Shown here in pieces: positions 30,255-50,025 of a DNA stretch of 64,000 nt. The position numbers and the translations under genes are program-made. Source of the stretch: Anaerolineae bacterium (GTDB lineage: Bacteria > Chloroflexota > Anaerolineae > S140-20); NCBI GenBank assembly GCA_027021705.1, contig JALUTT010000085.1, positions 21,526 to 85,525 on the forward strand, written 5' to 3'. How positions within the stretch are numbered: position 1 is the first letter of the stretch; every line of letters begins with the position of its first letter. The notes below the pieces were generated by a model. That model saw only the letters and a program-made list of their open reading frames with translations. It had not been told where the DNA came from and did not search any database.

Positions 30255-30262
30255 GGAGCGGC

Positions 30263-30291
30263 TTGACTTTCCCCGGGGTTTCCGCTATACT
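30263..30291 (+). promoter_or_regulatory. sigma70 promoter of the type III cas operon
   Basis: TTGACT-17 nt-TATACT, about 180 nt upstream of cas10. Confidence 0.75.
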
Positions 30292-30472: not shown

Positions 30473-32419
30473 ATGCACGAGACATGGCGTGACTGGTATG
30501 AGGCTGTTCTGCGTCCCCTCCTTGACCACACCCCCGATGCTGAACCTTCTCCCACCTTGAAGAAGCTGCTCGCCCGCGATCCCGACGAAGTGGACCTGGC
30601 CCTCCTGGCCGCCGACACCGACCGTACCCAAAGCTACATCTTCGAGAGCGCCAAACTCCCCGAAATCCGGGGAGGAAGCGAGCTGCTTCGCCGCCTGAAC
30701 CAGGAGGTCCTGCCCCAGATCGTGACCGACGCCGGCCTCCCCGCAGCGTGCGTGCTCTATGCCGGCGGTGGGAGCCTCCTGGCCCTGGTGCCCGCCTCCA
30801 TCGCCGACGACCTGGCGGCTCAGATCGAGCGATGCTACCCCGACCGGACCGGCACGGCAACCATCACCTGCGTCTGGCGGCCTGTCAGCCCCCAGGAGGT
30901 CCTCCACGGCTGGGGAGGCACGACCTTCTCCCAAGACCAGGTCAACGCCCTGCGCGACCGGCTCACTGCTGAGGACTGGCAGCGCGTCGCCCGCGCCTAC
31001 GGCCTCTCCGACGGTGGCCCCATCCCCCCAGAAGCCTACCGGCAGCGTCGGGGCTTTGGGCAGATGGTCCAAGTGATGGGCACGCTGCTGCGGCGGCGCA
31101 AGGAGACCCCGCCGGCCATACCCGTTGTTGAAGCCTTCCCCTTCGCCATGCGCTGCCAGGTCTGCCAAGTGCGTCCGGCGGAGCGGATCGCCCCCTACTT
31201 CGGCGAAGACCGGCCCCTCTGCGCCGCCTGTCAGCGTAAAGCAGGCGATGGACGAGCGCAAGAGGCCCGCAGCCAGCAGGTGAGGCGCTTCCTGGCCTGG
31301 CTAAAAGATCGGCCCGACCTCGAGGAACGCTACCTAGGTGACGCGGCCCGGCGCCGGGTCCACTTCACCCAGGACTTGAACGAGTTGGGGGCCGCCTGCC
31401 GAGCACGGCCGGGGTACATCGGGCTCCTCTACGCCGACGGCAACCGGATGGGCCAGGTTCTGGAGTCCCTCCCCACGCCAGAGGCCTACCGCCAGTTCAG
31501 CCAGGCCCTGAGGGAAGCCCTGGAGCACGCCGCCTACCAGGCCCTGGCAGAGCACCTCCATCCCATCCAAATCGAGCGGGTCAGCCCTACCGGAAAACCC
31601 CTGGGGAAAGGGTACATCCACCCCCTAGAACCCTTGGTCGCCGGCGGGGATGACCTGATCCTCATCGTGCCGGCCGATGTGGCGCTGCCCATCGCCCTCC
31701 GCTTGAGCCAGCTCTTCGAGCGGGAGATGGTTCAACGGGTGCCGGACGAGATATGGTCCTGGCTCCCCCCTGCCCTGCGCCACCCCACCCTCTCCGTCGG
31801 CGTCGCCATCGCCGACAGCCACAACCCCGTTCGGGTTCTCCAACAACTCTCCCGGGAACTCTGCAAGAGCGCTAAAGGTCGCGTCCACGAGGAGGAGGAG
31901 CAAGGCCACCCTCCCACCTCGGCCCTGGACTTCCTGGTGCTCAAATCCCAGAGCATGCTGCGCCGCGACCTCCGGCAGCTTCGCCGGCTCCCGCCCTACT
32001 ACTACTCCGAGGACGGGCGTCGGCGGGGCCGCTTGATGACCGCGGCGCCCTACACCCTGGAGGAGGGCCGCCGGCTGCTGCGGCTGCTCAAGGCGATACG
32101 CCAGGCGAACACCCCCACCAGCCTTCTGCAGAACCTGGTGGCCGCGCTGCATCGGGGACGCAAGTACGGCTCGCTCCACTACCTGTACCAGCAGGCCCGC
32201 TTAGGTGGGACGCAGCCCCTGCTGACCCTCCTGCCCCGAGTCTGGCCCTACGACGACCGGCGGGACCCCATCCCCTGGCACCGCCTCCCTGGCGAGGAGG
32301 AAGTCTTCGCCACCATCGTGCCCGACCTGCTGGAGCTCTACCCCTTCGTGCCCAAACCGGCCCCCGACGATCTGTGGCGGGAGGTCCTGACGGAGGCAGA
32401 CGATGAAGACGCGAATTGA
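30473..32419 (+). CDS. cas10: Cas10, type III large subunit; no HD domain, intact cyclase palm
   Basis: ADTDRTQSYIF..LPEIRGGS, LYAGGG, CQVC..CAAC zinc finger, YADGNRMG, VAGGDDL, LSVGVAI; 648 aa with no N-terminal HD domain. Confidence 0.93.
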   Translation: MHETWRDWYEAVLRPLLDHTPDAEPSPTLKKLLARDPDEVDLALLAADTDRTQSYIFESAKLPEIRGGSELLRRLNQEVLPQIVTDAGLPAACVLYAGGGSLLALVPASIADDLAAQIERCYPDRTGTATITCVWRPVSPQEVLHGWGGTTFSQDQVNALRDRLTAEDWQRVARAYGLSDGGPIPPEAYRQRRGFGQMVQVMGTLLRRRKETPPAIPVVEAFPFAMRCQVCQVRPAERIAPYFGEDRPLCAACQRKAGDGRAQEARSQQVRRFLAWLKDRPDLEERYLGDAARRRVHFTQDLNELGAACRARPGYIGLLYADGNRMGQVLESLPTPEAYRQFSQALREALEHAAYQALAEHLHPIQIERVSPTGKPLGKGYIHPLEPLVAGGDDLILIVPADVALPIALRLSQLFEREMVQRVPDEIWSWLPPALRHPTLSVGVAIADSHNPVRVLQQLSRELCKSAKGRVHEEEEQGHPPTSALDFLVLKSQSMLRRDLRQLRRLPPYYYSEDGRRRGRLMTAAPYTLEEGRRLLRLLKAIRQANTPTSLLQNLVAALHRGRKYGSLHYLYQQARLGGTQPLLTLLPRVWPYDDRRDPIPWHRLPGEEEVFATIVPDLLELYPFVPKPAPDDLWREVLTEADDEDAN

Positions 32420-34289
32420 CGTTCACCTGACCTTCGACGGCCCCTTCAACGTGGGCAGCGGAGCCATAGGCGGCTCGCTGGCCGACAAACCCCTGATCCG
32501 AGATGCCCGGGGGCTGCCTATGGTGCCTGCCTCCGCTTTCAAGGGCCGTCTGCGCCACGAGGTGGAACGGCTGGCCCCCATCCTCTGCCCCGATGATCCG
32601 CCGCCGTGTGGCTCCCCCCGCGCAGAGACGATGTGTCAGGGTGATGCGCCTCCCTGCCCCGTCTGCCGCCTCTTCGGCTCCCCTTGGCATCCAGGCCGGC
32701 TGACCTTCAGCGACTTCACGCTGGTGGAACCGGCCTTTCTGCTCATCGGGGAGCCTCCGCCGGGCCACCTGCGCTACGGCGTCGGGCTCTCGCGCCAGCG
32801 TCGGGTGGCCGAGGACCAACTGCTCTACACGGTCGAGGTCTTCCTGCCCGGCACCCCCATCACCCTGAGCGGCACGATCCAGGGCGATCTGGAGAACGAG
32901 GACCTCGTCCTGCTGAAAGCGGCGCTGGAGAACCTCCTCGCCGTCGGCGGGGGCAAGACCAAAGGGCTGGGCTGGTTTGAGATGGCCTTCCACATCCACC
33001 GGGAACCGGAGCCCGCTCCTCCCGCCCCCCTCTCGGTGGGTGACCAAGACGAGGTGCTGGAAGTCATCGTCCAGTTGGACTCCCCCCTGCTCCTGGGCCC
33101 CGATGCCGACGAGGCTTTCTACAAAACGACCCGGTCCTTCATCCCCGGCAGCGTCCTGCGGGGCTCCCTGGCCCGACAGATGACTGCCGCCTGCGAACAT
33201 GACCCGCAGGCCCCCCACGAGGGGTGTGACTTCGGTCGCCTCTTCGACGATGGCCCTGCTCCCATCTTTGAGCATCTCTACCCCACCACCTCTCACGCCT
33301 GGGAGTTCCCCTTCCCCGCCCCGCTGACCGCCCGTTCCTGCAAGTACCATCCGGGCTTCGTTCACCCCCGTGCCGAGGAGGAGGGGGGCCACGGCGTCGG
33401 GGACATTTTGATCCCCCAGGCGGTCTTCGAGGCCATGCTGGACCGGGGGCTGCCCCTGCCGGCCCTCTACCGGCCCCGGTGCCCCAGGTGCGGGGCTGAA
33501 GTGGTCCCCTTCGACGCCTTCCTCCTGATGATCGAGGCCGACCGCTTCGACAGCATCGCCGTGCCCATCCGCCGCACCTCTCACACGGCCATCAACCGGC
33601 AGCGGGCCGTTGCAGCCGACGGGCTGCTCTACACCCTGGAGACCATCGAGCCGTTGGACCACCAACGCCGTCCCACCACCTTTCGGGGGCGGGTGCGGGC
33701 CTCGCCCGCCCAGATCGCCATCCTGGCCCATTGGCTCCCCCGGCTCTCCGCTCTAGGGCGGGGCCAGACCCGGGGCCTGGGCCACGTCCACGTTCAGGTT
33801 AAGCGCCCGGAGGAGACCCCCAACCCGCTGCCCCTCCTGGAAACACGCTTGCGAGATTTCAACACCGCATTCTGCCAGGAATGGGCCTTCTACGAGCGGG
33901 TGGTAGGGGCCGAGCCCCTGCCGGACGATCTCCTCTTCTTCAGCTTGGACCTCCTCTCACCCGCCGCCCTGACCTGGCACGGCGTGCCGGTCACGGCCCC
34001 ACCCCCGGCGATGCTGGGCTTTGAGGGGGGCGTCCACCTGCAGCGGGCCTTCGCCCGCTACCAGATGGTGGGCGGCTGGCACCTGGGTGCCGGCCTGCCC
34101 CGGCGAACCCGCCCCGTGGTGGTGCAGGGAAGCGTCTTCCTCTATCGCTGCCAGGGCCTCTCCTTGGAAGCACTGGCTGCTCACTTGGCCCCCTTGGAGA
34201 CCCAGGGCCTAGGGGAGGACCGGGGTCGGGGGTTTGGCCGTCTCCTGATCTGCTCTCCCTTCCATTACAAGCCGGAGGTGACCCTATGA
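32403..34289 (+). CDS. csx10: Cas7-Cas5 RAMP fusion (Csm3-Csx10 type, III-D)
   Basis: Successive RAMP units with PASAFKGRLR and IPGSVLRG; Gly-rich loops GGGKTKGLG, GRGQTRGLG, GEDRGRGFG; QGSVFLY. Confidence 0.85.
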   Translation: MKTRIDVHLTFDGPFNVGSGAIGGSLADKPLIRDARGLPMVPASAFKGRLRHEVERLAPILCPDDPPPCGSPRAETMCQGDAPPCPVCRLFGSPWHPGRLTFSDFTLVEPAFLLIGEPPPGHLRYGVGLSRQRRVAEDQLLYTVEVFLPGTPITLSGTIQGDLENEDLVLLKAALENLLAVGGGKTKGLGWFEMAFHIHREPEPAPPAPLSVGDQDEVLEVIVQLDSPLLLGPDADEAFYKTTRSFIPGSVLRGSLARQMTAACEHDPQAPHEGCDFGRLFDDGPAPIFEHLYPTTSHAWEFPFPAPLTARSCKYHPGFVHPRAEEEGGHGVGDILIPQAVFEAMLDRGLPLPALYRPRCPRCGAEVVPFDAFLLMIEADRFDSIAVPIRRTSHTAINRQRAVAADGLLYTLETIEPLDHQRRPTTFRGRVRASPAQIAILAHWLPRLSALGRGQTRGLGHVHVQVKRPEETPNPLPLLETRLRDFNTAFCQEWAFYERVVGAEPLPDDLLFFSLDLLSPAALTWHGVPVTAPPPAMLGFEGGVHLQRAFARYQMVGGWHLGAGLPRRTRPVVVQGSVFLYRCQGLSLEALAAHLAPLETQGLGEDRGRGFGRLLICSPFHYKPEVTL

Positions 34290-34792
34290 GTGGGCAAGGA
34301 CAAGGAACGAGCAACGGACGCGAGCAGAAACGCCAGCGTCTCCGCCGTCGCATGGCGATCCAACGCCAGGTGGAGCTGCGGATGAACCACCTCATCCGGC
34401 AGATGACCCAACTGGTGGATGCGGAGACGAAGGTGGCCGAGAGCCGGATGGAGAAGCACCAGATCAAGACCCTGCTGGGGGTGGCCTTGGAGACCTCCAG
34501 CGTCGAGGTCATCAAACACTACATCCTCTACCAGGTGGGGCGGGATGTGGCGGGCACGAACTGGCGTCACAACGATTTCGGTCGGAAGCTGGTGAAGGCG
34601 CTGGACAGGCTGCGCCAGGACGCCGAGCGGATCACCCGGCAGGTCCACCGACAGCTCCGCCTGGAGGACCCCAGCCGGGAAGAGGTGGAGGAGACCTGGC
34701 TGTTGCTGGTGCGGGCCTACCTGGGCTATCTCAACCGCTACTTCTACTTTCGGAAGGAGGAGGCGCTATGGCCATCGGCAACGAGTGGATAG
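34286..34792 (+). CDS. Putative Cas11 small subunit
   Basis: 168-aa all-helical protein with ILYQVGR and YLGYLNRYF motifs, overlapping both RAMP neighbours. Confidence 0.7.
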   Translation: MSGQGQGTSNGREQKRQRLRRRMAIQRQVELRMNHLIRQMTQLVDAETKVAESRMEKHQIKTLLGVALETSSVEVIKHYILYQVGRDVAGTNWRHNDFGRKLVKALDRLRQDAERITRQVHRQLRLEDPSREEVEETWLLLVRAYLGYLNRYFYFRKEEALWPSATSG

Positions 34793-35634
34793 ACTTCACC
34801 ACCTTTCACAACCGCCTGCGGGTGCGGGGGGTTCTGCACGCCGAGACGGCCCTGCGCATCGGTAGCGGGGAGACGAGCGGCCCCACCGAGCACGACCTGC
34901 CCGTCTTAAAGGACCTCTACGGACGTCCCTACATTCCCGGCAGTTCCTTCAAAGGGGCCTACCGCGCCCACTTGGAGCGGCTGCTGCGGGGGATGGACGA
35001 GCGGCTGGCCTGCCCCAGCACCACCCGCCCGCGCGGACGCGACGCCCTGCCCGGCTGCCTCACCCAGGAGGATGTGGACTACCTGAAGCGTCAGTACGAG
35101 GGCGACGCTCCCGGCCTGGCCCGTGAGATCCTGCGCCGCTCCTGCTGGACCTGCTCCCTCCTGGGCGCCCCCTGGCTGGCCTCCAAGGTCCTGGTCCGAG
35201 ACCTGACCGTTGTCCCCGAAACTTGGTTCGAGCACTACCTTGTTCGCGACGGGGTTGCCATTGACCGGGACACCGAGACGGCGGCGGAAGGGCTCAAGTA
35301 CGACTTCGAGGCCGTTCCCTCCGGCACAGCTTTCGCCTTCGAGATGGTCATCGAGAACGCCAGCGATGCCGAATTGGGGCTGGCCCTGCTAGGGCTGCGA
35401 GAGTTTGAAGAGGGTTACGTCTCCCTGGGAGGAGGAGCCTCACGGGGGCTGGGCAACGTCCGCCTGGTGCTGGACTGGGAGCGGTCAGAGTGGCTGACAG
35501 CCTCGGACCTACGGGCCTACCTGGAACGGCGGACCGTCGGCAGCCTGGCCCGAGAGGAAGACCGTCAGCGCTACTGGCGGGCCTTCCTGGACGCGCTGGA
35601 GAGGGGAAAGAAGGAGGTAGAGGGCCATGCATAA
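34768..35634 (+). CDS. Cas7-group RAMP (Csx7/Csm3-like)
   Basis: ALRIGSG, HDLPVLKD..GRPYIPGSSFKG, RDGVAIDRDT, LGGGASRGLG. Confidence 0.9.
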   Translation: MAIGNEWIDFTTFHNRLRVRGVLHAETALRIGSGETSGPTEHDLPVLKDLYGRPYIPGSSFKGAYRAHLERLLRGMDERLACPSTTRPRGRDALPGCLTQEDVDYLKRQYEGDAPGLAREILRRSCWTCSLLGAPWLASKVLVRDLTVVPETWFEHYLVRDGVAIDRDTETAAEGLKYDFEAVPSGTAFAFEMVIENASDAELGLALLGLREFEEGYVSLGGGASRGLGNVRLVLDWERSEWLTASDLRAYLERRTVGSLAREEDRQRYWRAFLDALERGKKEVEGHA

Positions 35635-36568
35635 GAAGTTGGTCAACGAGCTGCGCCTGACCTTCCGCATCCAGCCCCAGGGCCCTTTGCTCATCAAATC
35701 GGGCCGGGAGGCCGGGGCCGATCCCACCCTGCTCGACATGAACTTCGTGCGCACCACCCACGCCGAGCTAGGCCATACTGTCTACCTGCCCGGCTCCAGC
35801 CTCAAGGGGGCCATACGCAGCTACTGCGAGAAGATCGGGCGGACGGTGGGGCTGAAGGTCTGCAACCCCCTGGACGTGCGCGATTCCTGCGGCCGCCGAC
35901 TGGAGCGCAAGGCCAAGAGGGCCACCGGCGCGGAGATCTACCGGCAGCTTTGCCCCATCTGCTGCATCTTCGGCCACACGGTCATGTCCAGCCACATCCG
36001 CTTCGACGACGCCTACCCCACACCGGAGACGGTGGCCGTGGTCAACGAGACGGAGGAGCGGGATGGGGTGGCCATAGACCGGGTGTCCGGGGCCGTGGCC
36101 GTAGGGCCATTTCAGCTCGAGGTGGTCACCCGAGGCGAGTTCCTCGCCGGCCTGACCCTGCGCAACTTCCAGCTCTGGCAGGTGGGCCTGCTGGCGGTGG
36201 CCCTACGGGATATGGCCGAGGGGCGCGTCCCCTTGGGTTTTGGCCGCAGCCGGGGGCTGGGGCGCGTCCGCTTGCGCTACGACCGGCTGGAGATCACCTA
36301 TCCCGGCCGCTTCCACGACGATGGCGGGCAGAAGTTCGACCAAGCCCTCTACGGGGTCACAGCCCTGATGTCGGCTGCCGATGCCGAACCCTACGGCTTC
36401 TACCCCGAAGACCCCCTGCCCCTGCCCGTCTCCACGACACCCGTCAGCGAGTGGGGGCGCGTCAGCCTGGTCTACGAAGACCCCGGAGCGATCATCCGGC
36501 TGCTCAAGGCAACGGTGAAGCCCTGGAGCGCCTACGTGGCGGCGATGACGCAGGGAGGGAACCGGTGA
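35627..36568 (+). CDS. Cas7-group RAMP (Csm3-like)
   Basis: GPLLIKSG, DMNFVRT, YLPGSSLKG, CPICCIFG, RDGVAIDR, LGFGRSRGLG. Confidence 0.9.
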   Translation: MHKKLVNELRLTFRIQPQGPLLIKSGREAGADPTLLDMNFVRTTHAELGHTVYLPGSSLKGAIRSYCEKIGRTVGLKVCNPLDVRDSCGRRLERKAKRATGAEIYRQLCPICCIFGHTVMSSHIRFDDAYPTPETVAVVNETEERDGVAIDRVSGAVAVGPFQLEVVTRGEFLAGLTLRNFQLWQVGLLAVALRDMAEGRVPLGFGRSRGLGRVRLRYDRLEITYPGRFHDDGGQKFDQALYGVTALMSAADAEPYGFYPEDPLPLPVSTTPVSEWGRVSLVYEDPGAIIRLLKATVKPWSAYVAAMTQGGNR

Positions 36569-37155
36569 GCGAGCGACCCCACCTCTACCACCGTTTTGTG
36601 GCCCCCGAGGAATTGGCGGCGACTCTGGAGGCTCTGAGGGCCACCTACGTCCTGGACTACCTGTACTGGGAGTCCGAGGCCACCATCGAACTGACGGCCT
36701 ACCGCACGCCGGATCCGGCGTGGTCCCACGGGCGGGCCTTCGGTCCGTCGCTGGAAGTGCGCTGGCAACGGACCGGCGAGGGGTTCGAGATGCTGCTGCT
36801 GACCGAGAGGCCGCTCCCCCTGCCCCAGGGGTGGCAACCCCTGCCGGAGGCCACTGCTGGGGGGCAAGGAGAGGCCGATACCCCGTTTCCCTACCCGGAC
36901 TCGGTGGACTCCCCGGCGCAGGTGCTGCTCTGGGGCACCCACATTCGCCACCTCCAGCACCCCCACCGGCTGGCGGGTGGCGAGGGGGATGTCTGGATCG
37001 AGACGCGCATCCCCCGCCCCCTGCGCTATCCGGTCCGGGGAGCCCCCCCCTGGGTCAAGGCCCGGGTCATCACCTACCGCTACCGGGGGCGTCCTGTGCT
37101 GACCCGCCTGGTGAGTCTGGAAGGAGAGAAGCATGAGCCCGAGACCTCCTGGTGA
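36565..37155 (+). CDS. csx19: Csx19-like subunit of the type III-D complex
   Basis: GTG start overlapping the previous stop after GGAGG; GRAFGPSLEVRW, LLWGT, ETRIPRPLRYP, TRLVSL; lies before the last Cas7. Confidence 0.7.
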   Translation: MSERPHLYHRFVAPEELAATLEALRATYVLDYLYWESEATIELTAYRTPDPAWSHGRAFGPSLEVRWQRTGEGFEMLLLTERPLPLPQGWQPLPEATAGGQGEADTPFPYPDSVDSPAQVLLWGTHIRHLQHPHRLAGGEGDVWIETRIPRPLRYPVRGAPPWVKARVITYRYRGRPVLTRLVSLEGEKHEPETSW

Positions 37156-38146
37156 TGAGTTCGTTCCCAAGCCTTACAACTTCGTTCCCTTCCCCCAGAA
37201 GGTAGAGCGCTTCCGGGTGCCCGGCCACGAACGGCTGGACCTGGCGGACCACTACAGCGGTCGGCTCACCTATCGCCTGCAGGCGCTGACCCCCGTCTTC
37301 GTGGGCACCGGCACCTACGCCCTGGGCGAGGACGTGGGCTTCCCCCGGGCACTGGTCGTCCGTCCCTTCTACCGGGTGCGCGGCGAGCCTACCATCCCCG
37401 GTTCCTCGTTGAAGGGCGTGGTCCGCAGCATCGTCGAGGCCGTCAGCCCTTCCTGTGTCACCGTCACCCGCATCGCCCCCCACAAGCTGCCCCCAGGGGT
37501 GGAACTGGCCCAGGGCCGGCGCCGGGGTTGCAGCCCCACCCAGGCCTGTCCGGCCTGCAACCTCTTCGGTCGGGTGAGCCAGTCGGCGAAGGTCCATTTC
37601 AGCGACGCCCACCTGGCCGAGGGGGGGAAGACGGCCCTCTTCCGGCTGACGCCTCTCTTCGCGCCCCGCGCCTTCCGCTCCCCACCCGTCTACCTGAACG
37701 ATGAGGGAAAGTTCAAAGGGCGCAAGTTCTACTACCACAGCCGGCCGGCCGAGGACAGCCGCCAGCCTCCCGTCGAGGTGATCCCCAAAGGGCGGCAGGT
37801 GACAGGGGAGGTGACCTTCGAGAACCTGCGGATGGCCGAACTGGGCCTCCTCCTCTTCGCCTTGGGGCTAGATGGCACCCTTACCCTCAAGCTGGGTGGC
37901 GGCAAACCCGTGGGGCTGGGCTCCCTGCGAACGGTGGGGGCGACGTTGGCCCTGCTGGAGGCCGACCACTACACCCAGGCCGAGGCCCAGGAGAGGACTT
38001 ATCGTGGGAAAGCGCTGGCCGACTTCGTAGGGCAGGCCATTGATGCCGCCCTGAGCGAAGGTATCCTCCTGCGAGAGCAAGCCCTGGAGCTGGCAGAGAT
38101 CCTGACCTTCACCCAAGATCGTTCCGCCCCTCTGAGGTCCTACTGA
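37133..38146 (+). CDS. Cas7-group RAMP (terminal III-D Cas7)
   Basis: KPYNFVPF, IPGSSLKGVVRS..EA, CPACNLFG, GRKFYYH, FENL, KLGGGKPVGLG. Confidence 0.9.
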   Translation: MSPRPPGDEFVPKPYNFVPFPQKVERFRVPGHERLDLADHYSGRLTYRLQALTPVFVGTGTYALGEDVGFPRALVVRPFYRVRGEPTIPGSSLKGVVRSIVEAVSPSCVTVTRIAPHKLPPGVELAQGRRRGCSPTQACPACNLFGRVSQSAKVHFSDAHLAEGGKTALFRLTPLFAPRAFRSPPVYLNDEGKFKGRKFYYHSRPAEDSRQPPVEVIPKGRQVTGEVTFENLRMAELGLLLFALGLDGTLTLKLGGGKPVGLGSLRTVGATLALLEADHYTQAEAQERTYRGKALADFVGQAIDAALSEGILLREQALELAEILTFTQDRSAPLRSY

Positions 38147-38241: not shown

Positions 38242-38586
38242 ATGGCGATGAGCAAAGCGGATTGGGCCAAAGCCGACGCCATTGCCCGCCGGTTGGCCAA
38301 GGACGTAGACCGCAACGAGCTGGGCAAGATCGTGGCCTATGCCCACCGTGTCCGCGATCCAGGGAAGGTGATCACGCTGGCGCAGCGCCTGCCCCAGAGC
38401 GGCTATGTGCGCAGCAAGCGCACCCGAGGCTACCTCCAACGAATCGCCCGGGTCCTGAGCGACGAACTGGCCGGCCTGGAAAGAGAGCGGGCGCTCGCCA
38501 TCCTGGCCTGGGCTTTCCGATTGCTCACCACCTACCAGACGGAGATGGGCACGGGCAAGGCAGCCGGGCGGAGGCAAAGAGGCTAG
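38242..38586 (+). CDS. Small basic helical protein, possibly a second Cas11-like subunit
   Basis: GAGGAGG RBS; DRNELGKIVAY...RSKRT..Y...AILAWAFRLL resembles helical small-subunit domains of type III loci. Confidence 0.55.
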   Translation: MAMSKADWAKADAIARRLAKDVDRNELGKIVAYAHRVRDPGKVITLAQRLPQSGYVRSKRTRGYLQRIARVLSDELAGLERERALAILAWAFRLLTTYQTEMGTGKAAGRRQRG

Positions 38587-38600: not shown

Positions 38601-39902
38601 TTGAACTGGGGTAAAGCCATGTTGGGAGAAGCCCCGATGGAATTTCTTGAGAGAGAGATTCGCGATCTTCAGGAAGAGCTGGACAGCATCGAAAAGCGCA
38701 GACACATCTTTCAGGGGCATGTGCGCCATCTCGAGGAGCGAGCAGCCATACAAGGTGGTGAACACAATCTCTCACTCGCTGATAGAACTCAATTGGAACG
38801 TGTTCGTGAAGTGTTTGAAAAGCTTGACCTACAAATGCAGGACCTCCAACGCCAGTTAGTAGACAGGCTTGATAGATTGCAGAGAGCTCAGGAGGTGGAA
38901 GCACTTGAGAAAGCGCTAGACGAGGCCATCGAGCAAGAGAATCCTAGTCTTGTAAAAAGTATCGCCGGGCAGTTGAAAAGCCTGGAACCGTCCCGTGCAG
39001 AGACGGTTGATCTGAAGCTCACGCGCTACTATTGGAGAGCAGTTATAGCTATGGAGCGCACCAGGAATTTTGATGGCTGTAGGCAAGCATGGGAACAGTT
39101 GGAAGCCCACTGCTATCGAACTGGTGACGAAGAGGGCCTTGGCAATGCCCGTGAAGGACTGGCACGCTTATTTGAGCAGCAAGGTGACAAGGAGGCTCGA
39201 GAGGGAGGATTTACCCAGGCCATCCATCTCTACCGCCAGGCCTACAAAAAGTGGTGCGAGGTAGGAACAGGAGAAGACGCACTATTCGCCCAGCAGCGTG
39301 TCTTAGGGAAACAGGCCCAAGCGTACGAGAATCTGGAACAGCTTGAAAAAGCATTGCACTGTAGTTATGATCGGCTAGAACTGCTGACGCAGATGGGACG
39401 ATTACAAGAAGCCAAGCCTTGCTACCGCCAAGCCATAAAGTTATGCGCCAGGCTCTCCGGCCCACAGCGTGATGATTGGGAGTATAGACTCACCAGCCTC
39501 TATGTCGAGTGGCTTAAAGACCTTGAGAGCCCCTCGGAGATTCAGGAAATCGCCGACCTCGGTCGTCGTGAGAACAGACCAGCAATTTACGAACCTGCCA
39601 CTTATGCCCTAAAGGATCTCAGTATCTTGATCCCACAGCCGTTACACCTCCGAGAGAGACATCGCTCCCCACCAGGAGAACCATCGCGCGATCTGACCAT
39701 CCGACAGCGCTGTGCTGACTTGGACAAACTGATTGCCGAAGCCCAAAAGCTTCTCAGGGAGTTCGAGGAGCTCCGCCTCCTGGCCGATGATCCCAAGAAA
39801 AAGCTTCGGCTGGAACGCCAGATCGCCGACCTGAAGGCCCAGATGAAGGATTACGAAGCGGAGTATCAGGAGCTACAGTGCCACGAGCTAGAGGGGAGGT
39901 AA
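38601..39902 (+). CDS. TPR-like helical protein with N- and C-terminal coiled-coil modules (start may be 38619 or 38637)
   Basis: TPR-like A..LY.QA and A..CYRQA repeats; C-terminal ~60 aa shared with the next ORF; visibly AT-richer DNA. Confidence 0.7.
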   Translation: MNWGKAMLGEAPMEFLEREIRDLQEELDSIEKRRHIFQGHVRHLEERAAIQGGEHNLSLADRTQLERVREVFEKLDLQMQDLQRQLVDRLDRLQRAQEVEALEKALDEAIEQENPSLVKSIAGQLKSLEPSRAETVDLKLTRYYWRAVIAMERTRNFDGCRQAWEQLEAHCYRTGDEEGLGNAREGLARLFEQQGDKEAREGGFTQAIHLYRQAYKKWCEVGTGEDALFAQQRVLGKQAQAYENLEQLEKALHCSYDRLELLTQMGRLQEAKPCYRQAIKLCARLSGPQRDDWEYRLTSLYVEWLKDLESPSEIQEIADLGRRENRPAIYEPATYALKDLSILIPQPLHLRERHRSPPGEPSRDLTIRQRCADLDKLIAEAQKLLREFEELRLLADDPKKKLRLERQIADLKAQMKDYEAEYQELQCHELEGR

Positions 39903-40565
39903 GGCTTGATGACCGATCATTTGGATGAAGAAGTGGAACACCTGCGCGAACTCCTGCGCACCCATCGGCGCACCTTGATGATCCTGGAAGAGCAGATCGC
40001 CCAGTTCACCGAGATGGAAGCCCCCGTCCACAAGCTCAGCCAGCGGGATCAGGTACGCGCCGAGATCCAGCGCCTGGAGGCCCAGCTGCAAGCTTTGTCG
40101 TCGCAAGGGGGCCGTCAGGCATCGCAGGCATCGAAGGAAAAGCCACCTCGCAAGACTGATTCCACCGGTCGCAACCAGCGCCAACAGCGTTGTGACTCCT
40201 TAGGCGAGTTGATCCGCGACGCTCAGGCCCTGCTCAAAGAGTACGAGGAGCTTCGCCTCCTGGCCGATAATCCCAAGGAAAAGCGTCGGCTGGAACGCCA
40301 GATCGCCGACCTGAAGGCCCAGATGAAGGATTACGAAGCGGAGTATCAAGAGCTACAGTGCCACGAGCTAGAGGGGAGGTAAGGCTTGATGACCGATCAT
40401 TTAGATTTAGAGAAAGAAGTGGAACACCTGCGCGAACGCCTGCGCATCCATCGGCGCACCCTGATGATCCTGGAAAAGCAGATCGCTCAGTTCACCGAGA
40501 TGGAAGCCCCCGTCCATAAGCTCAACCAGCGGGATCAGGTACGCGCCGAGATCCAGCGTCTGGAG
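39759..40565 (+). repeat. Direct duplication of ~320 bp spanning gene junctions (copy 1 ~39759-40079, copy 2 ~40239-40565)
   Basis: Near-identical sequence with period 480 nt (486 after a 6-nt indel), including stop, RBS and start: ...CACGAGCTAGAGGGGAGGTAAGGCTTGATGACCGATCATTT... Confidence 0.95.
39909..40382 (+). CDS. Two-module coiled-coil protein (putative adaptor)
   Basis: N-terminus nearly identical to that of the 40389 ORF; C-terminus nearly identical to that of the 38601 ORF; GGAGG RBS. Confidence 0.75.
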   Translation: MTDHLDEEVEHLRELLRTHRRTLMILEEQIAQFTEMEAPVHKLSQRDQVRAEIQRLEAQLQALSSQGGRQASQASKEKPPRKTDSTGRNQRQQRCDSLGELIRDAQALLKEYEELRLLADNPKEKRRLERQIADLKAQMKDYEAEYQELQCHELEGR

Positions 40566-41669
40566 AAGGAGCTTCGTGCTCTGGAGGCCCAGCAGGTCGT
40601 GGGTGTCAGCCCGCCGCCAGAACCAGAACCTTCACACCCCTCCATCCGCGTCTTCATCAGCGGCACCATCCGAGACCTCCGGGCCGAGCGAGAGGCCGTG
40701 GAACAGGCCCTCCGGCACCTCGATCTGGAAACCCTGCGGGCCGAGACCATCGGCTCCCAGTCGGCCAGCCCCTACGAGGTCAGCCTGATGCTGGCCCAGC
40801 AGTGCGACATCTACCTGGGCCTCTACGGCGGACGCTACGGTACCATCGTGCCCGGCGATGGCCGCTCCATCACCGAGATCGAGTATCAGACCGCCCGCAA
40901 CCAGGGCAAACCGATCCTCATCTACCGCAAGAAGGGGGTAGAGGTAGAGCCGGAACAGGAAGAGTTCCTACAGTTCGTCGGCGACCTGACCGGCGGTCAC
41001 ATCTGGCGGGAGTTCGGCCCCGATGACGTGCCCGACAACCTGATGGCCTGGGTGCAAGAGGACGTGCGGGCGGAGGTTCGGCGTCACCCCGAGTGGGCTC
41101 GGCGTCCCCCGGCCCGGGGCCGCGTCCTCCTGGCCTCCCTGGGCCGCTCGCCCGGGGCCGTCACCGGCCTCTACCATGCCCTGGTCCGCGACGGCAAGCC
41201 GGTCACCCGCGTCGTCACCTTCTCCTCCACCCATCGGGATGTGCGCGACGCGGCCGGCATCTGTAGGCAAGAGTTCCACTGGCTGGGGGTCCCCTACGCC
41301 AACCGTCTCATTGACGCCGAAGACATCGCCAGCGAGGACGATGCCCGCGAGTTCAAGTCCTGCTTCTACGGTCTGCTCCAGGAGAGCCTGGGGAGCGGCG
41401 CTGAGGTCCTGGTGGGCATCACCGGCGGGCGGACGGTGATGGGAGCGCTGATGGCCGTCGTCGTACAGACCACCGCCCCTGGACAGGCCGCCCTCTACCA
41501 CCTGGACGTGGACGACGACATCGAGGAAGACGGTCGCCTGCCCCGGCTGTGGGATTTCGAGGGCACGGAGCGGTGGCGGGAACTCCTGGACCCACCTCCG
41601 GAGAAGTGTCGGCTGGTCCGAGTGCCTTACGTCCGCTTCCCAAGCCAATCCTCCGCCGGCGGCCGATAG
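40389..41669 (+). CDS. Coiled-coil + DUF4062 (TIR/NDT-like) + CARF (Csx14/NE0113-like) fusion protein
   Basis: DUF4062: IRVFISGTIRDLRAEREAV..CDIYLGLYGGRYG..SITEIEYQTA. CARF: VLLASLGRSPGAVT..EDIASEDDA..VGITGGRTVMG..LYHL. Confidence 0.85.
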   Translation: MTDHLDLEKEVEHLRERLRIHRRTLMILEKQIAQFTEMEAPVHKLNQRDQVRAEIQRLEKELRALEAQQVVGVSPPPEPEPSHPSIRVFISGTIRDLRAEREAVEQALRHLDLETLRAETIGSQSASPYEVSLMLAQQCDIYLGLYGGRYGTIVPGDGRSITEIEYQTARNQGKPILIYRKKGVEVEPEQEEFLQFVGDLTGGHIWREFGPDDVPDNLMAWVQEDVRAEVRRHPEWARRPPARGRVLLASLGRSPGAVTGLYHALVRDGKPVTRVVTFSSTHRDVRDAAGICRQEFHWLGVPYANRLIDAEDIASEDDAREFKSCFYGLLQESLGSGAEVLVGITGGRTVMGALMAVVVQTTAPGQAALYHLDVDDDIEEDGRLPRLWDFEGTERWRELLDPPPEKCRLVRVPYVRFPSQSSAGGR

Positions 41670-41691: not shown

Positions 41692-42519
41692 ATGCCCACG
41701 GTCGTCACGGTCCACCTCTCCACGGCAGATCCGCTCTTCTTCGACGAGACCTGGCCCCTGGAGACGCCCTTCCGGCAGCTCCTGGCCGCTGCTCACCCAT
41801 CCCCACCGCCGACCGGGGGGCAACACGACGCCTTCCTGCCCTACACCCTCTCCCCCCTCTGGCGGGTCCACCGCCGGCAGCGCCCCAACCCGGGGAGGGC
41901 AACCCCGACCGCCTACCGATGGCGGATCTGCCTCCTCGACGACGCCCTCGCCCCTCCCCTCCTGGCCGGCCTCCAGGCGATGGAGACGCTGGCGCTGCAG
42001 GGTGCTTCCCTCACCGTCGAGGAGGTGACCGTCGAGGCGCAGAGCTACCCCCAACTCGCCCGCCAGGCCCAGGAGCAGGTCGGTGGCCGGCCCGAGAGCG
42101 CCCGCCGCCTCTCCCTGGAGTTCATCACCCCCGTCGTCCTGCACCGGTCCGGGCTCCCCATGCCCCTGCCGGACCCCCTCCTCGTCTTCCGCCACTACCT
42201 CCTCTGCTGGGACACCTTCGCCCCGCCGGAGCTCCGGGTCAACGTCAACCTCCTCGACGCCGTCGCCTTCCACGTCGCCCTGACGGAGCACCGGCTGGAG
42301 ACCCGGCGCGTCCGGCTGGCGGGGAAGCCCCCCCGAGTCGGCTTCCTGGGGAACGCCACCTACACCGTGATGGCCTGGGAGAAGCTCGGCCCGGACTTCC
42401 TGGCGACGCTGCACGCCCTGGCCCGGTTCGGGGCCTTCTGCGGCACCGGTGAGATGACGGCCCAGGGTCTGGGGCAAACCCGCTACGGGGGGCCTGAGCC
42501 GCCCAGGAGGTCCCGTTGA
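41692..42519 (+). CDS. cas6: CRISPR pre-crRNA endoribonuclease Cas6 (copy 1)
   Basis: PYTLSPL, LEFITP, PLPDP, GFLG and C-terminal Gly loop GTGEMTAQGLG. Confidence 0.85.
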   Translation: MPTVVTVHLSTADPLFFDETWPLETPFRQLLAAAHPSPPPTGGQHDAFLPYTLSPLWRVHRRQRPNPGRATPTAYRWRICLLDDALAPPLLAGLQAMETLALQGASLTVEEVTVEAQSYPQLARQAQEQVGGRPESARRLSLEFITPVVLHRSGLPMPLPDPLLVFRHYLLCWDTFAPPELRVNVNLLDAVAFHVALTEHRLETRRVRLAGKPPRVGFLGNATYTVMAWEKLGPDFLATLHALARFGAFCGTGEMTAQGLGQTRYGGPEPPRRSR

Positions 42520-43505
42520 GCACCCTATCCCTGCCCTCTGACTTCACCCTGGCCCACTACCGCCTCACCCTGGAGGCCCTGGAGCCCCTGCACCTCCCCC
42601 CTTTCAAGGGGAGTGCACTGCGGGGTGGGTTCGGCCACACCTTCAAACAGCTCGTCTGCTCCCAGCCCTGGCCCTGCGCCCAGCGCTGCCAACGGGGCAA
42701 CGCCTGTCCCTACGGCTACATCTTCGAGACCGCCCCGCCGGCGGGGAGCGAGGTGTTGCGCACCTTCCGCGAGGTGCCCCGCCCCTTCGTCATCGAGCCG
42801 CCCCAGGACCGGCGCACCTACATCCCCGCCGGCGATCGGCTCACCTTCGGGCTGACCCTGGTCGGCCAAGCCATCCCCTTTCTGCCCGACTTCGTCGTCG
42901 TCTTCCAAGAGCTGGGCCGCAGGGGGCTGGGCCGCCGGCGGGGGCAGTACCGCCTCCTGGCGGTGGACGCCGTCCTCCCCCACGAGGGGCGGGCCGAGCC
43001 GGTCTACCGGGAGGAGGATGGGGAGGTGCGGTCTGCGGACCTGCCCATCCGCATCCCGGCCATCGTCGCCCACGCCGCCCGGTTCTCTCCCGACCGGCTC
43101 ACCCTCCATTTTGTCACTCCCACCCGGCTCAAGCACGAGGGTCGCTGGGTGCGCCGGGGGCCGCCCTTCCACGTCCTGGTCAAGGCGCTCCTGGGGCGCA
43201 TCTCCTCCCTCAGCTACTTCCACTGCGGCCAGCGTTGGGAGACCGACTTTCGGGGCTGGATTGACCGGGCGCGGGCGGTGCGGCTGGCGAGGGCGGAGAC
43301 TCGCTGGGAGGACTGGGAGCGGTTCTCGGGCCGGCAGCGACGGCGGGTGAAGATGGGCGGACTGGTGGGCCGGGCCACCTACGAGGGCGATCTGGAGCCC
43401 TTCCTGCCGCTGCTGGCCCTGGGCGAACTGGTTCACGTCGGCAAGGGCACCGTCTTCGGGAACGGACAGTACCGGGTCGGGGAGTCCGTAGTCCGCAGTC
43501 CGTAG
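42516..43505 (+). CDS. cas6: CRISPR pre-crRNA endoribonuclease Cas6 (copy 2, Cys-cluster type)
   Basis: FKGSALRGGFG, C..C..C..CPY, VPRPFV, FVTPTRL, WERFSGRQ, HVGKGTVFGNG. Confidence 0.9.
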   Translation: MSTLSLPSDFTLAHYRLTLEALEPLHLPPFKGSALRGGFGHTFKQLVCSQPWPCAQRCQRGNACPYGYIFETAPPAGSEVLRTFREVPRPFVIEPPQDRRTYIPAGDRLTFGLTLVGQAIPFLPDFVVVFQELGRRGLGRRRGQYRLLAVDAVLPHEGRAEPVYREEDGEVRSADLPIRIPAIVAHAARFSPDRLTLHFVTPTRLKHEGRWVRRGPPFHVLVKALLGRISSLSYFHCGQRWETDFRGWIDRARAVRLARAETRWEDWERFSGRQRRRVKMGGLVGRATYEGDLEPFLPLLALGELVHVGKGTVFGNGQYRVGESVVRSP

Positions 43506-43630
43506 TCCGCAGTCCACAGTCTTTTTCACGCCTGGTGCTCTTTGTGGCCTTGGTGCCCTTTGTGTCCTCCGCGCCGCAAAATCGGCGGTCGGCCGTTGGC
43601 GGTCGGCGGTCCGCCGTCGGCGGTCGGCCG
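43485..43630. repeat. Cluster of short tandem repeats (GTCCGYA, 9-mer CTTTGTG-like, GGCGGTC)
   Basis: gtccgtagtccgcagtccgtagtccgcagtccacagtc; ggcggtcggcggtccgccgtcggcggtc. Confidence 0.75.
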
Positions 43631-47804: not shown

Positions 47805-49904
47805 TCAGGCCGCCGCGTCCCCCTCGCGCACCACGATCTGCCGGATTCGGTCCAGCCGGAAGAGCCGCTCGGCCTGAGCGCGGCGGCAGAAGCCGACCAG
47901 GTAGAGCACCTCCCCCCGTCGCTCCAGCCGATAGGGCTCCACCACCCGGTGGGTCACCTCGTCCCGACCGGCGGTGTAGTAGGCCATCTCCAGGACGCCC
48001 CCCCGCTCCAGCGCCTCCTCGACGAGAGCACGGACTTCCTCGACCGGCAGCGTGGGCGCCGTCCAGGCGGGAAAGGCAGCCCGGCCCTCCAGGGCCTCCT
48101 GCAGCGCGGCCAGAGTCCGCTCCACTGCCACCTCGGCAGCGGTCAGATCGCCCGGATCCGCCAGGGCGGCCAGGTGGTCCAGGAGGGGCTGGGGAAGGTG
48201 GACCGGCAGGGAGAGGAAACGGCCCAGCTTCTGGTAGAGGCGGGCAGCCATCCAGAGATGGGCGGCCCCGCTCCGGCCCAGCGCAGGGTCTGCAGGGGGA
48301 ACGGGTGGAGGAAGCTCGATCCGGGGTGGCACCCCCTCCTGACGGGTCAGGCGGCGGACCAAGAGGGGCAGTTGGGCTTCGTCCACGACGACGGCCCGGC
48401 GGGAGAGGGTGCGGTGGATGAGGCGACGCCCCCGCCGGGTCGAAGCCAGCCGGCTCAGAACCTCGGGCTCCTTCACCTCCAGCACCGTCAGACGGCGCAG
48501 GGTCATCCGGTCCGCCATCTCCCCCCACTCCCGCAGCAGGGCCACCTCCTGGCCGGTGAGCGGACGATCCGTCAGCGCCTCCAGCGCCTCCAGCAGGGCC
48601 GGGATGGACCACCCGCGATGGAGCGCCCTCACGAATCCCGAGGCCGACAAGGTGTACCGGTAGCCTTCCTCCCCGCCCTCCCCACGCCCCCCTTCGCCGA
48701 TCTCCACCGCCACCGCCAGGTGGGCCGGGTCCGGCAATCCCGGGCGCAGCGTCAAGGTGAGCCGGCGCTTCAGCGGATCGGGCTGCCGGTCCAGCGCCAC
48801 CGCGAACCGGGCGAAGGCGAGGGGAGGGAGCCCGGAGCGTAGCGATCCGGCCAGCCACGCCGCCCCCACCGACGACAGCCTGTAGCCCCCTTCCCCCTCC
48901 CCGTCGTCACCGTGCAGGACCCCCAGCCAGACCAGCGGACCGGTGAGGAGTTGGACCACCGCCTCCCGCAAAAGGTCGCGGGCGTTGGGGGTCCTGTCGG
49001 CCACCAGGTCGTAGAGCCGGGGGTGACGGGCGACCAGGGCCCGGGCGAAGCCCTCGGGGTCCGAGGGGGCCATCTCCTCAAGTTCCTCGTGGATGGCGGC
49101 CACCAGCACCTCGGGCCGGACGAGCCAGCCGCTGCCCGGCAGGCGAAAGGCCCGCCACCGGTCGGAGTCCGGCGCCGTCCAGACCTCCCACAGGCGCTGG
49201 AGCCGGTCGGCGCGAGCCCCCCTCAACCAGAGTTCGGCGGCGGGGGTGGGCTTCAGGAAGGGGCCGGCGGGGCCGACGAAGCCGGCCGCCTCGGCCAGGT
49301 AGTGGAGGAAGCGGCGCCGCCCCGTCCGCTTCTCGCTCCGGGCGTTGGGGAAGGCCGGGGGAACGGCACACTGCTCCCCCCAGGCGGCCAGGAAGCCCGG
49401 GGGAAGCCACCCACCGGCCAGCGGCCGGACCTCCTCGCGCCGAAGCAGGGCCAGGAGCAGGGCCAGGTCGTGACAGAGGAGATCGGCCGGCGCAGGACCC
49501 GGGCCGGCGGAGGACGCCGGTGGCGCGGGCAGGGCCGGAGGGGCCGGCAGGTGCGGGATGAGGTCCTCGGGCACGAAGAGGTCGTCCGTCAGCCGATCGT
49601 GGAAGAGGAGCCCCAGGCAGCGCAGCCGTTCCAGGGGAGCCGGGTCTCCCCCTGCCACCGCCCGCGCCGACCGGAAGGGCATACGACCGCCGACGGCCAC
49701 CAGGCTCTCCAGCACACGCCGCTCCTCTCCGGTCAGGTCGGACAGCGCCGCCGCCAGGTTGGCAGGGTCCGGCAGCGTGCGGGCCAGCCGATCCACCAGG
49801 TCGGCCTTGAGGATGTTCGAGGAAAAACGGAGCCCCCGCCGCCGACCAATGATCACCAGCCGCCGCCAGGGAGTTCCTTCCAGAGCTTCGCGCAGGGTCG
49901 TCAT
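47805..49904 (-). CDS. WYL-domain protein with helicase-associated (Helicase_C_3-like) domain
   Basis: C-terminal MAYYTAGR..HRVVEPYRL..YLVGFCRRAQAERLFRLDRI; central YTLSASGFVRAL..GWS..LLREW; AGGAGG RBS. Confidence 0.85.
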   Translation of the reverse strand: MTTLREALEGTPWRRLVIIGRRRGLRFSSNILKADLVDRLARTLPDPANLAAALSDLTGEERRVLESLVAVGGRMPFRSARAVAGGDPAPLERLRCLGLLFHDRLTDDLFVPEDLIPHLPAPPALPAPPASSAGPGPAPADLLCHDLALLLALLRREEVRPLAGGWLPPGFLAAWGEQCAVPPAFPNARSEKRTGRRRFLHYLAEAAGFVGPAGPFLKPTPAAELWLRGARADRLQRLWEVWTAPDSDRWRAFRLPGSGWLVRPEVLVAAIHEELEEMAPSDPEGFARALVARHPRLYDLVADRTPNARDLLREAVVQLLTGPLVWLGVLHGDDGEGEGGYRLSSVGAAWLAGSLRSGLPPLAFARFAVALDRQPDPLKRRLTLTLRPGLPDPAHLAVAVEIGEGGRGEGGEEGYRYTLSASGFVRALHRGWSIPALLEALEALTDRPLTGQEVALLREWGEMADRMTLRRLTVLEVKEPEVLSRLASTRRGRRLIHRTLSRRAVVVDEAQLPLLVRRLTRQEGVPPRIELPPPVPPADPALGRSGAAHLWMAARLYQKLGRFLSLPVHLPQPLLDHLAALADPGDLTAAEVAVERTLAALQEALEGRAAFPAWTAPTLPVEEVRALVEEALERGGVLEMAYYTAGRDEVTHRVVEPYRLERRGEVLYLVGFCRRAQAERLFRLDRIRQIVVREGDAAA

Positions 49905-50025
49905 CGGCCTCCTCCTGCTCAACCCTCGTTGGTCCTCATCGGATTATACATCCATCTGCGGGTCCTGACGTCTCGAGGACGAGGATTCCTACCAAATCTC
50001 GGACCCTCTCTCGGTCTGAGGCCGA

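Follow-up and report, generated by a model that had tools for sequence, protein, structure and literature searches.

A DUF4062/NIR-CARF fusion protein of a type III-D CRISPR operon from an Anaerolineae bacterium, predicted to act as a cyclic-oligoadenylate-activated NADase

In a 64,000-nt stretch of contig JALUTT010000085.1 from an Anaerolineae bacterium (hereafter the window, to which all coordinates refer unless a locus is named), the gene at 40386..41669 encodes a protein in which a DUF4062 domain, renamed NIR in recent preprints, stands in front of a CARF domain; it lies within what, by its gene content, is a complete type III-D CRISPR operon. We think it probable, though far from assured, that this NIR-CARF protein is an effector of the type III-D system, i.e. 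a NIR-type hydrolase of nicotinamide adenine dinucleotide (an NADase) activated by cyclic oligoadenylate (cOA), probably in the form of cyclic tetra-adenylate (cA4). An earlier reading of the window from its sequence alone (the sequence-only reading) had proposed a cOA-sensing CARF behind a TIR-like glycosidase domain in a type III system whose Cas10 keeps GGDD and lacks an HD nuclease. Every computational test agrees with it, with cOA activation and NADase chemistry standing as predictions.

The course of events that we propose would be the following. Binding of target RNA by the Cas10 complex would set the GGDD cyclase to make cOA, most likely cA4, and the ring would be bound by a dimer of the Crn1-like CARF domain, in which Arg349 and Asp313 stand where the ring nuclease Sso2081 has its main residues for cA4 binding. 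A rearrangement or oligomerisation would then turn on the N-terminal NIR domain, which would hydrolyse NAD+ through Glu166, and the infected cell would be arrested. The effector is moreover probably tethered to two proteins encoded just upstream, CC158 and TPR433, by like-with-like helical contacts of two short modules that we call H and X, following what may be termed the EAD principle. The gene and the parts of its product are:

40386..41669, + strand: NIR(DUF4062)-CARF gene, 427 aa counted from TTG 40386, likelier start ATG 40389
40386..40610, + strand: helical hairpin H, a shared adaptor module (about residues 1-75; helices 2-33 and 43-73, predicted local distance difference test score, pLDDT, > 90)
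40635..41108, + strand: DUF4062/NIR TIR-like domain (residues 84-241)
41118..41639, + strand: CARF domain of the Crn1/Csx14 (Cas_NE0113) type (residues 245-418; motif I G253-R254-S255, motif II G348-R349-T350)

The gene was called from its open reading frame (ORF), the translation and the Pfam matches to DUF4062 and Cas_NE0113. ATG 40389 is the likelier start because a Shine-Dalgarno sequence, GGAGG (40375-40379), is placed 9 nt before it. The AlphaFold2 (AF2) model of the whole protein (mean pLDDT 89.9) shows the three parts as a two-helix hairpin (residues 2-73) followed by two alpha/beta domains, which supplies the structural check of the domain boundaries that had been suggested beforehand. 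The fusion itself, proposed in the sequence-only reading with the enzyme N-terminal to the sensor, is borne out by both Pfam matches, each above its cut-off, by the structure matches and by the order of the two domains; the motifs quoted there were all found, SITEIEY at residues 161-167, LGRSPGAVT at 252-260 and GGR at 347-349. The N-terminal 'coiled coil' of the same reading is indeed helical, but has to be corrected to a shared adaptor module that links the protein to two neighbouring genes. For comparisons with known folds, VIA-align was run with the model against 48,161 chains, each domain being matched separately. Conservation is counted in an alignment of 28 homologues (A1), the profile of which was also run against all solved chains, where the DUF4062 domain of KpSwz (10wc) and the ring nuclease Sso2081 (7ygh) came out as the two best families.

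The enzyme domain was delimited from Pfam, the KpSwz profile match and VIA. It covers the full DUF4062 model (PF13271, model positions 1-82) at residues 88-170 with E 2.2e-20 and 73.1 bits, against a cut-off of 24.7, and the A1 profile matches KpSwz with E 2.7e-12 (profile positions 92-225). The conserved Glu that had been pointed out in SITEIEY can now be specified: it is the second Glu of the motif, Glu166 (codon 40881-40883), which is Glu in all 28 homologues, while Glu164 varies (E in 23, H in 3, Q in 1 and R in 1). In the HMMER alignment Glu166 falls on an Ala of the 10wc chain which, counting along the chain, is residue 97, and the deposited Swarozyc construct is KpSwz 15-C with E97A (Swarozyc preprint, section 8). 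Because it is aligned to the E97A position, Glu166 is the counterpart of the catalytic Glu97 of the solved DUF4062 NADase and thus the predicted catalytic residue of the NIR-CARF protein. Three 2026 preprints show by experiment that DUF4062 is a Glu-dependent NADase domain in Swarozyc, Avs2, Vulcan, Vesta, Evangelion and human TEP1; depletion of NAD+ through the same Glu is described for KpSwz, PsAvs2, Vulcan, Vesta and human TEP1 (10.64898/2026.05.01.722283, 10.64898/2026.09.04.749371), and hydrolysis to ADP-ribose (ADPR) and nicotinamide is the only reaction reported.

As to its fold, the NIR domain is flavodoxin-type and TIR/NDT-like, NDT standing for nucleoside 2'-deoxyribosyltransferase. 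Modelled alone it reached a pLDDT of 89.2. With residues 84-234, VIA gave Z scores of 12.3 for the plant TIR RPS4, 11.8 for the NDT-fold hydrolase MilB, 11.2 for Cat1 (9mud) and 11.1 for SARM1, and Foldseek with the isolated domain returned TIR-STING (E 1.9e-5), DNPH1, NDTs and plant TIRs. The resemblance to TIR is at the level of the fold only, no match to Pfam TIR or TIR_2 being found in the protein at E <= 0.01. Such results also suit a cOA-activated N-glycosidase that would act on a nucleotide or nucleoside in the manner of DNPH1, MilB or NDTs, and not on NAD+: DNPH1 and NDTs are among the best Foldseek matches, MilB ranks between TIR matches, and the legend of a figure in the Swarozyc preprint places DUF4062 in the Pfam clan Nribosyltransf. 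However, all the DUF4062 proteins reported as tested cleave or deplete NAD+ (KpSwz, PsAvs2, Vulcan, Vesta and hTEP1), and of all solved structures the KpSwz NADase matches best in sequence, so that we accord the glycosidase only a small chance.

The CARF domain belongs, as the sequence-only reading had it, to the Csx14/NE0113 type. Pfam Cas_NE0113 (PF09623) matches residues 256-418 with E 6.8e-12 and 46.1 bits against a cut-off of 23, PADLOC CARF/Csx1-type models match residues 246-420 (best E 1.3e-18), and the profile match to Sso2081 has E 3.6e-12 (profile positions 254-368). VIA with residues 245-415 gave Z 17.8 for cA4-bound Sso2081 (7ygh), with a root-mean-square deviation of 2.6 A over 158 residues, and Z 15.9 for the CARF of Cad1; the top Foldseek matches were Sis0455 and Sso2081. 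Among the homologues G253, P256, G257, G347 and G348 are invariant. The functional residues of Sso2081 find these counterparts, counted over the 28 homologues:

Motif I, G9-T10-S11 of Sso2081: G253-R254-S255; Ser in 24, Ala in 4
Asp75 of Sso2081: Asp313; Asp in 21, Glu in 6, Asn in 1
Motif II, Arg105 of Sso2081: R349; Arg in 27, Pro in 1
Motif II, Lys106 of Sso2081: T350; Thr in 25, Ser in 3, Lys in 0

In Sso2081, cA4 is bound chiefly through Asp75 and Arg105, Ser11 brings the scissile phosphate into position, and Lys106, strictly conserved in Crn1, stabilises the transition state; loss of this Lys abolishes the activity of Sis0455 and leaves Sso2081 stalled at a linear intermediate (PMC10018336). 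Judged by these positions, binding of cOA by the NIR-CARF protein, with cA4 the most likely ring, is a well supported prediction, and ring cleavage by its CARF domain would be possible, yet probably slow or lost. The suggestion that the effector might be self-limiting is thereby left half standing: the motif-I Ser speaks for it, the replacement of the motif-II Lys in all homologues against it, and cleavage of its own activator is uncertain.

The same domain could be taken as a sign that the protein works chiefly as an off-switch or ring nuclease of the Crn1/Csx14 type, which would clear cA4, DUF4062 playing a minor or regulatory part while the actual effector lies elsewhere. We hold this to be unlikely. 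The closest relatives of the CARF in both sequence and structure are the ring nucleases Sso2081 and Sis0455, the motif-I Ser is mostly kept, and the next-closest fold, the Cad1 CARF, is ring-nuclease active according to the title of a preprint; but the Lys on which the activity of Sis0455 depends is Thr or Ser in 28 of 28 proteins, four have Ala instead of the Ser, the invariance of the NIR Glu speaks for selection on the enzyme domain, and genome searches found no other candidate toxic cOA effector.

We therefore return to the cOA-activated NADase and to the system that would drive it. The NIR-CARF gene is the 11th of a co-directional run from Cas10 to Cas6, with the last III-D effector genes before it and cas6 behind it. 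The other cas genes of the run are:

30473..32419, + strand: HD-less Cas10, GGDD at nt 31643-31654 (residues 391-394)
32403..34289, + strand: Cas7-Csx10 (Cas5) fusion (TIGR02674 Csx10, 229 bits, above cut-off; PADLOC Cas5_IIId)
34286..34792, + strand: Csm2/Cas11 small subunit (PADLOC Csm2 (III-D), E 4.6e-28)
34768-35634 and 35627-36568, + strand: two Csx7/Csm3 Cas7 genes (Csx7 TIGR02581, 187 bits, above cut-off)
36720..37136, + strand: probable Csx19, start codon uncertain (position and synteny with L011; no family match of its own)
37133..38146, + strand: Cas7 of the III-D insertion type (TIGR03986 E 4e-41 and NF041225 E 1e-29, both under cut-offs; PADLOC Cas7_IIId and gRAMP)
38242..38586, + strand: small protein of the Csx21 family, type III-D associated (PADLOC Csx21, E 1.1e-14)
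41692-42519 and 42516-43505, + strand: two Cas6 genes (family searches, PADLOC)

Csx19 is the only component that was assigned by synteny alone: the syntenic 204-aa ORF of a related locus, L011, matches PADLOC Csx19 (E 6e-9), and the ORF of the window is 36% identical to its equivalent in another, L012. The Csx21 gene is kept behind the last Cas7 gene in L011, L012, L014, L017, L021, L026 and L028. The statements that Cas10 has GGDD without HD and that no Csm6/Csx1 HEPN nuclease is present in the cas region were confirmed: none of the ORFs of the locus encodes such a nuclease, and the search that detected no HD domain in the Cas10 of the window did detect one (PF01966 and HDIG) in the type III-A Csm1 of the same genome, used as a positive control. 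It was also observed that the last Cas7 resembles the C-terminal part of the III-E gRAMP (NF041225 positions 1381-1536), a hint of a III-D lineage near the point from which III-E arose. Near the contig end at 64000, downstream of the III-D genes by about 18 kb, there is an adaptation module made of a reverse transcriptase (RT) gene at 61172-62095 on the + strand (RVT_1, E 7e-39), Cas1 at 62198-63241 (E 1e-88) and a 152-aa ORF at 63238-63696 without family match. The first third of the window is filled by a nuo (NADH:quinone oxidoreductase) cluster, 2806-20233 on the - strand, an ordinary chromosomal context which indicates that the CRISPR locus is chromosomal.

The genome (183 contigs, 94.9% complete) has three Cas10 loci, namely that of the window (type III-D), a type III-B locus (contig C59, L009:133-8156) with Cmr1, Cmr3 and Cmr2, and a type III-A locus whose Csm1 has the HD domain mentioned above (contig C83, L010:702-3437). 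The III-B locus also contains an NE0113-type fusion of CARF to a GerE helix-turn-helix (HTH), a 388-aa Csx3 fusion and a WYL-WCX protein, and a second CARF-GerE gene occurs on a 1.2-kb contig (C158, L002). In these other CARF proteins the motifs are GGQ/GRR and GTE/GRK, unlike those of the window protein. Searches of the genome for Csx1_HEPN, Csm6_HEPN, SAVED and APE2256 gave no match for any of them; the controls were positive for Csx1 only, and the absence of the other three is weakly shown since no control genome matched them either. Thus the description of the NIR-CARF protein as the only visible cOA sensor holds for the locus but not for the genome, where two NE0113-type CARF-HTH proteins and the Csx3 fusion have to be added; it is the only candidate toxic cOA effector detected in the genome, though not its only CARF protein.

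The family, though real, is rare. Among about 5.8 billion clustered proteins a search gave 40 matches, 37 of them with both Pfam domains, and those that are named come from metagenome-assembled genomes of Anaerolineae or other Chloroflexi. In a profile search of 1.84 billion representatives, 15 of the best 150 matches had one stretch across both domains, the rest being DUF4062 alone, CARF alone or fragments. No match at E <= 1e-20 was obtained in 400 other genomes sampled from the phylum, a sample that does not establish absence. Scans of genome and metagenome contigs yielded 28 loci (7 in one scan and 21 in another), one of them the window's own contig; 17 of the 27 others have both domains, all on Chloroflexi or metagenome contigs, and the number of independent loci is smaller since the tblastn tables of L019 and L011 agree, as do those of L024 and L016. 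The cas neighbours are the same in 14 of these 17 loci: III-D genes lie upstream in the order of the window in 13, and both Cas6 genes lie downstream in L013, a short contig. None of the 17 was found in a non-CRISPR context, the remaining three contigs (2.1-4.2 kb) having a flank too short to judge. GGDD is kept in all eight related Cas10 genes that cover the motif.

At all loci whose upstream region can be seen, the NIR-CARF gene either follows a gene for a TPR or HEAT repeat protein or is fused to a TPR region. Where the effector lacks the hairpin, the upstream gene encodes a TIR_2-TPR protein (L015 and L016/L024), a DUF4062-TPR protein (L025-L027), a TPR protein (L014 and L023) or a HEAT-repeat protein (L017). 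A second NADase-type domain on a repeat scaffold occurs just upstream of a short NIR-CARF gene at L015:724-2199, L016:8542-10005, L026:8314-10005 and L028:1694-3010, in the form of TIR_2-TPR, DUF4062-TPR or TIR_2 with a P-loop NTPase-like region. As a separate observation, conserved proteins of 134-165 aa are encoded just downstream of H-bearing NIR-CARF genes at L011:11467-11886, L012:11317-11721 and L022:2550-3047; their N-terminal segment is hydrophobic, their C-terminal stretch looks H-hairpin-like by eye, and they have no Pfam match and no counterpart in the window.

The recurrence of these neighbours raises two further possibilities. One is that activation comes through the TPR partner, by sensing of phage proteins or docking on the III-D complex, and not through cOA, in which case the CARF domain would serve as a dimerisation module or timer. 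A repeat protein or TPR fusion at every locus with a visible upstream region would be in keeping with it, as would the sensing of phage proteins through repeat domains in the NIR systems Avs, Vulcan and Swarozyc and the likeness of the last Cas7 to part of gRAMP. We find it improbable in view of the CARF ligand signature, kept with its five invariant residues and with R349 in 27 of 28 homologues, and of the GGDD of all the related Cas10s, both of which argue that cOA signalling is in use. The other, to which we give very little credence, is that the NIR domain makes an NAD+-derived second messenger of the Thoeris type that activates another protein, e.g. the TIR-TPR or NIR-TPR neighbour. Directly upstream, sister loci do have a gene for a second protein, TIR_2-TPR or DUF4062-TPR, but the window's own TPR partner is without an enzyme domain, and for DUF4062 only hydrolysis to ADPR and nicotinamide has been reported.

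Within the explanation that we favour, a cOA-activated NADase, the repeat partner would be attached to the effector through small helical modules. The features concerned are:

38601..39902, + strand: TPR433, 433-aa coiled-coil/TPR protein with weak TPR matches, ending in the X module (residues 369-433)
39906..40382, + strand: CC158, 158-aa adaptor protein built from an H hairpin followed by a linker and, at the C-terminus, the X helical module
39701..40583, + strand: tandem duplication with a period of 480-486 nt, which runs across the gene junctions and gave rise to CC158

Residues 1-69 of the NIR-CARF protein and 1-67 of CC158 (H) are 81% identical (E 6e-33), and residues 94-158 of CC158 and 369-433 of TPR433 (X) are 82% identical (E 8e-32). 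At the DNA level, 39701-39931 repeats as 40181-40411 with 86% identity and 39919-40097 as 40405-40583 with 89%, and the stop-to-start junction sequence is identical at both gene borders. The tandem duplication and the identical junctions indicate that the CC158 gene arose as a chimera in which the effector gene's 5' end is joined to the TPR gene's 3' end. With dS 0.38 and dN/dS 0.28 for the X pair and dS 0.26 and dN/dS 0.34 for the H pair (65-67 codons, a small sample), divergence is mostly synonymous, which argues that the chimera has been kept by selection. For this reason, and because an independent H-EAD7 adaptor exists in L012, we rejected the idea that CC158 is a meaningless by-product of duplication. 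We also rejected X as a divergent EAD7, there being no common sequence pattern in a comparison made by eye only. Pfam at E <= 0.1 found nothing in H and X apart from coiled-coil noise, with no EAD model matched; the ESM Atlas gave generic TPR clusters for TPR433, with scores of at most 0.86, and a search for CC158 in longer proteins matched 3 of 1945 candidates. Complex prediction for H (1-80), X of TPR433 (355-433) and whole CC158, run without controls, scored 0.31, 0.00 and 0.02 against a mark of 0.34, a result that speaks neither for nor against binding.

The modules are moreover exchanged among relatives. A TPR-bDLD1-H protein comes directly before H-NIR-CARF in L011/L019, and in L012 the order is a 406-aa protein ending in Pfam EAD7, H-NIR-CARF and a 156-aa H-EAD7 protein. 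A 75%-identical homologue (P0004) has X in place of H, and X is also found at the head of P0047, an 861-aa TPR protein in which a P-loop-like motif was seen by eye only. P0030, P0036 and the L028 gene are TPR-NIR-CARF fusions, bDLD1 stands between the NIR and CARF domains in P0037, P0039 and P0053, and P0050 is an EAD7-trypsin-NIR-CARF protein; overall, EAD7 or bDLD1 takes positions equivalent to H or X in L012, L011, P0037, P0050 and P0053. According to the EAD principle of Kaur, Aravind and colleagues, short helical adaptors present on both an effector and a core protein bring about recruitment like with like (PMC8195603). Altae-Tran et al. have noted 'multi-component CARF/SAVED systems', and EAD7 is among the labels explained, without further detail, in the legend to their figure of CRISPR-linked CARF/SAVED proteins (PMC10910872). 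By analogy, the NIR-CARF protein is probably tethered to its TPR partner via shared adaptors.

Several points weigh against the NADase effector that we favour, or against parts of it. The CARF scores under the curated cut-offs of both specific NCBIfam models, with 37.8 bits (E 2e-9) against 90.35 for Csx14 (TIGR03642) and 18.2 bits against 125 for Crn1 (NF040581), and the adenine-contacting Glu17 of Sso2081 aligns with an invariant Gly, which leaves room for a ligand other than cA4. TIR domains, NDTs and the nucleotide N-hydrolases DNPH1 and MilB are about equally close to the NIR fold, so that the substrate may be other than NAD+. With two further type III loci in the genome, the NIR-CARF sensor may be fed by a Cas10 other than that of the window. 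The identity of H and X between neighbours stems from the tandem duplication and is, for this reason, no proof of binding by itself. No CRISPR array was found on the contig (TRF in the window, k-mer scan of the whole contig), arrays being present on other contigs; the array is probably beyond the assembly break.

At this stage we may only speculate about the larger assembly. TPR-CHAT docks in type III-E, where gRAMP binds a TPR protein. It is conceivable, although on balance we doubt it, that III-D drives a tethered 'signalosome', in which homotypic adaptors (H, X, EAD7 and bDLD1) would wire NIR-CARF to a TPR scaffold, cOA would trigger supramolecular assembly of the NADase, the adaptors of sister loci would also reach a second TIR/NIR NADase or a trypsin-like protease, and the TPR arm might dock on the gRAMP-like Cas7. 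If this is true, it would be the first case of an EAD/death-like adaptor logic built into a CRISPR effector module. The family as such already shows homotypic adaptors that can replace one another and that would connect a CRISPR effector with its TPR partners. The use of a ring-nuclease-type CARF as a sensor, with motif I kept and the motif-II Lys lost, would offer a test case for the passage from ring nuclease to sensor, and the protein could serve as a compact cA4-to-NADase reporter module.

Some other features of the window may be recorded. A 705-aa protein with a C-terminal WYL domain (E 1.8e-17) and an N-terminal part of 580 aa without family match is encoded at 47805-49922 on the - strand, about 4 kb downstream of cas6 and opposite to it. 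A GAF histidine kinase of 937 aa and a GerE-type response regulator (52960-53703) follow at 50135-53703 on the + strand, and a vWA protein is found at 53923-55794. On the - strand, 26643-30245 encodes a 1200-aa protein, probably a secreted nuclease, with lamin-tail, OB-fold, DUF11 and endonuclease/exonuclease/phosphatase domains; the 1449-aa ORF that overlaps it on the opposite strand (25917-30266) has no Pfam or NCBIfam match and may be spurious. Tandem repeats of heptamers (e.g. GGGGGCA and AGTCCGC) lie in intergenic positions flanking the cas operon and other genes, at 43483-43628, 55810-55885, 25783-25912 and 30209-30249, and a 102-nt tandem repeat (59675-59896, 2.2 copies, 93% identity) has related k-mers at the ends of contigs C24 and C25.

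Literature searches and the main texts of preprints yielded no paper describing a DUF4062-CARF fusion, although census or supplementary tables may list one. In the main texts of the three 2026 DUF4062 preprints 'CARF' occurs 0 times and CRISPR only in references or general introductions, and in PMC8195603, on the adaptors, neither CARF nor CRISPR occurs. As with the adaptors EAD7 and bDLD1 (PMC8195603, PMC7159879), the same short helical module is present on an effector and on the neighbouring scaffold, the multi-component CARF systems noted in PMC10910872 being a likewise comparable case of module sharing, but H and X of the window are outside the Pfam EAD models. With Crn1 (Sso2081, Sis0455) and Csx14 the protein has in common the fold of the CARF subfamily, the motif-I G-x-S and an Arg and an Asp at the cA4-binding positions; Crn1, however, is a stand-alone protein of about 180 aa with the motif-II Lys, and NIR-CARF a 427-aa fusion with Thr in its place and scores below the Crn1 and Csx14 thresholds of NCBIfam. 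The systems Swarozyc (KpSwz), PsAvs2, Vulcan, Vesta and Evangelion share with it the enzyme family and the catalytic Glu, and TPR or HEAT repeat partners recur in them, but they sense phage proteins, whereas the trigger module of NIR-CARF is a CARF domain encoded in a cas operon.

Among type III effectors, the sequence-only reading had named the SAVED-based TIR protein as the characterised one; a SAVED effector does exist, but Cat1, a CARF-TIR protein, has been characterised as well (PMC12162218). Cat1 likewise combines a cOA-sensing CARF with a TIR-fold NAD+ hydrolase that depends on a Glu and is encoded with type III cas genes (PMC12162218), the corresponding activity of NIR-CARF being a predicted one. 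It forms filaments driven by cA4 and is described as not cleaving cA4, whereas NIR-CARF may or may not do so. Its order is the reverse, an N-terminal CARF followed by a canonical TIR, while NIR-CARF has the enzyme first, an enzyme of the DUF4062/NIR type, a CARF of the Crn1/Csx14 type, an extra adaptor hairpin and a TPR partner. TIR-SAVED and TSR1 (TIR-SAVED-Crn4) are also type III-linked NADases activated by cyclic nucleotides, and TSR1 is self-limiting through its ring-nuclease domain (10.64898/2026.09.16.751991); they differ in that the sensor is SAVED, which binds cyclic tri-adenylate (cA3), and the TIR is canonical, with no EAD-type adaptors reported for these proteins. After TIR-SAVED, Cat1 and TSR1, the NIR-CARF family would then add a fourth, independently evolved architecture of cOA-gated NADase, and would join two lines of work, on NAD+ depletion by type III CRISPR systems and on the DUF4062/NIR NADases.

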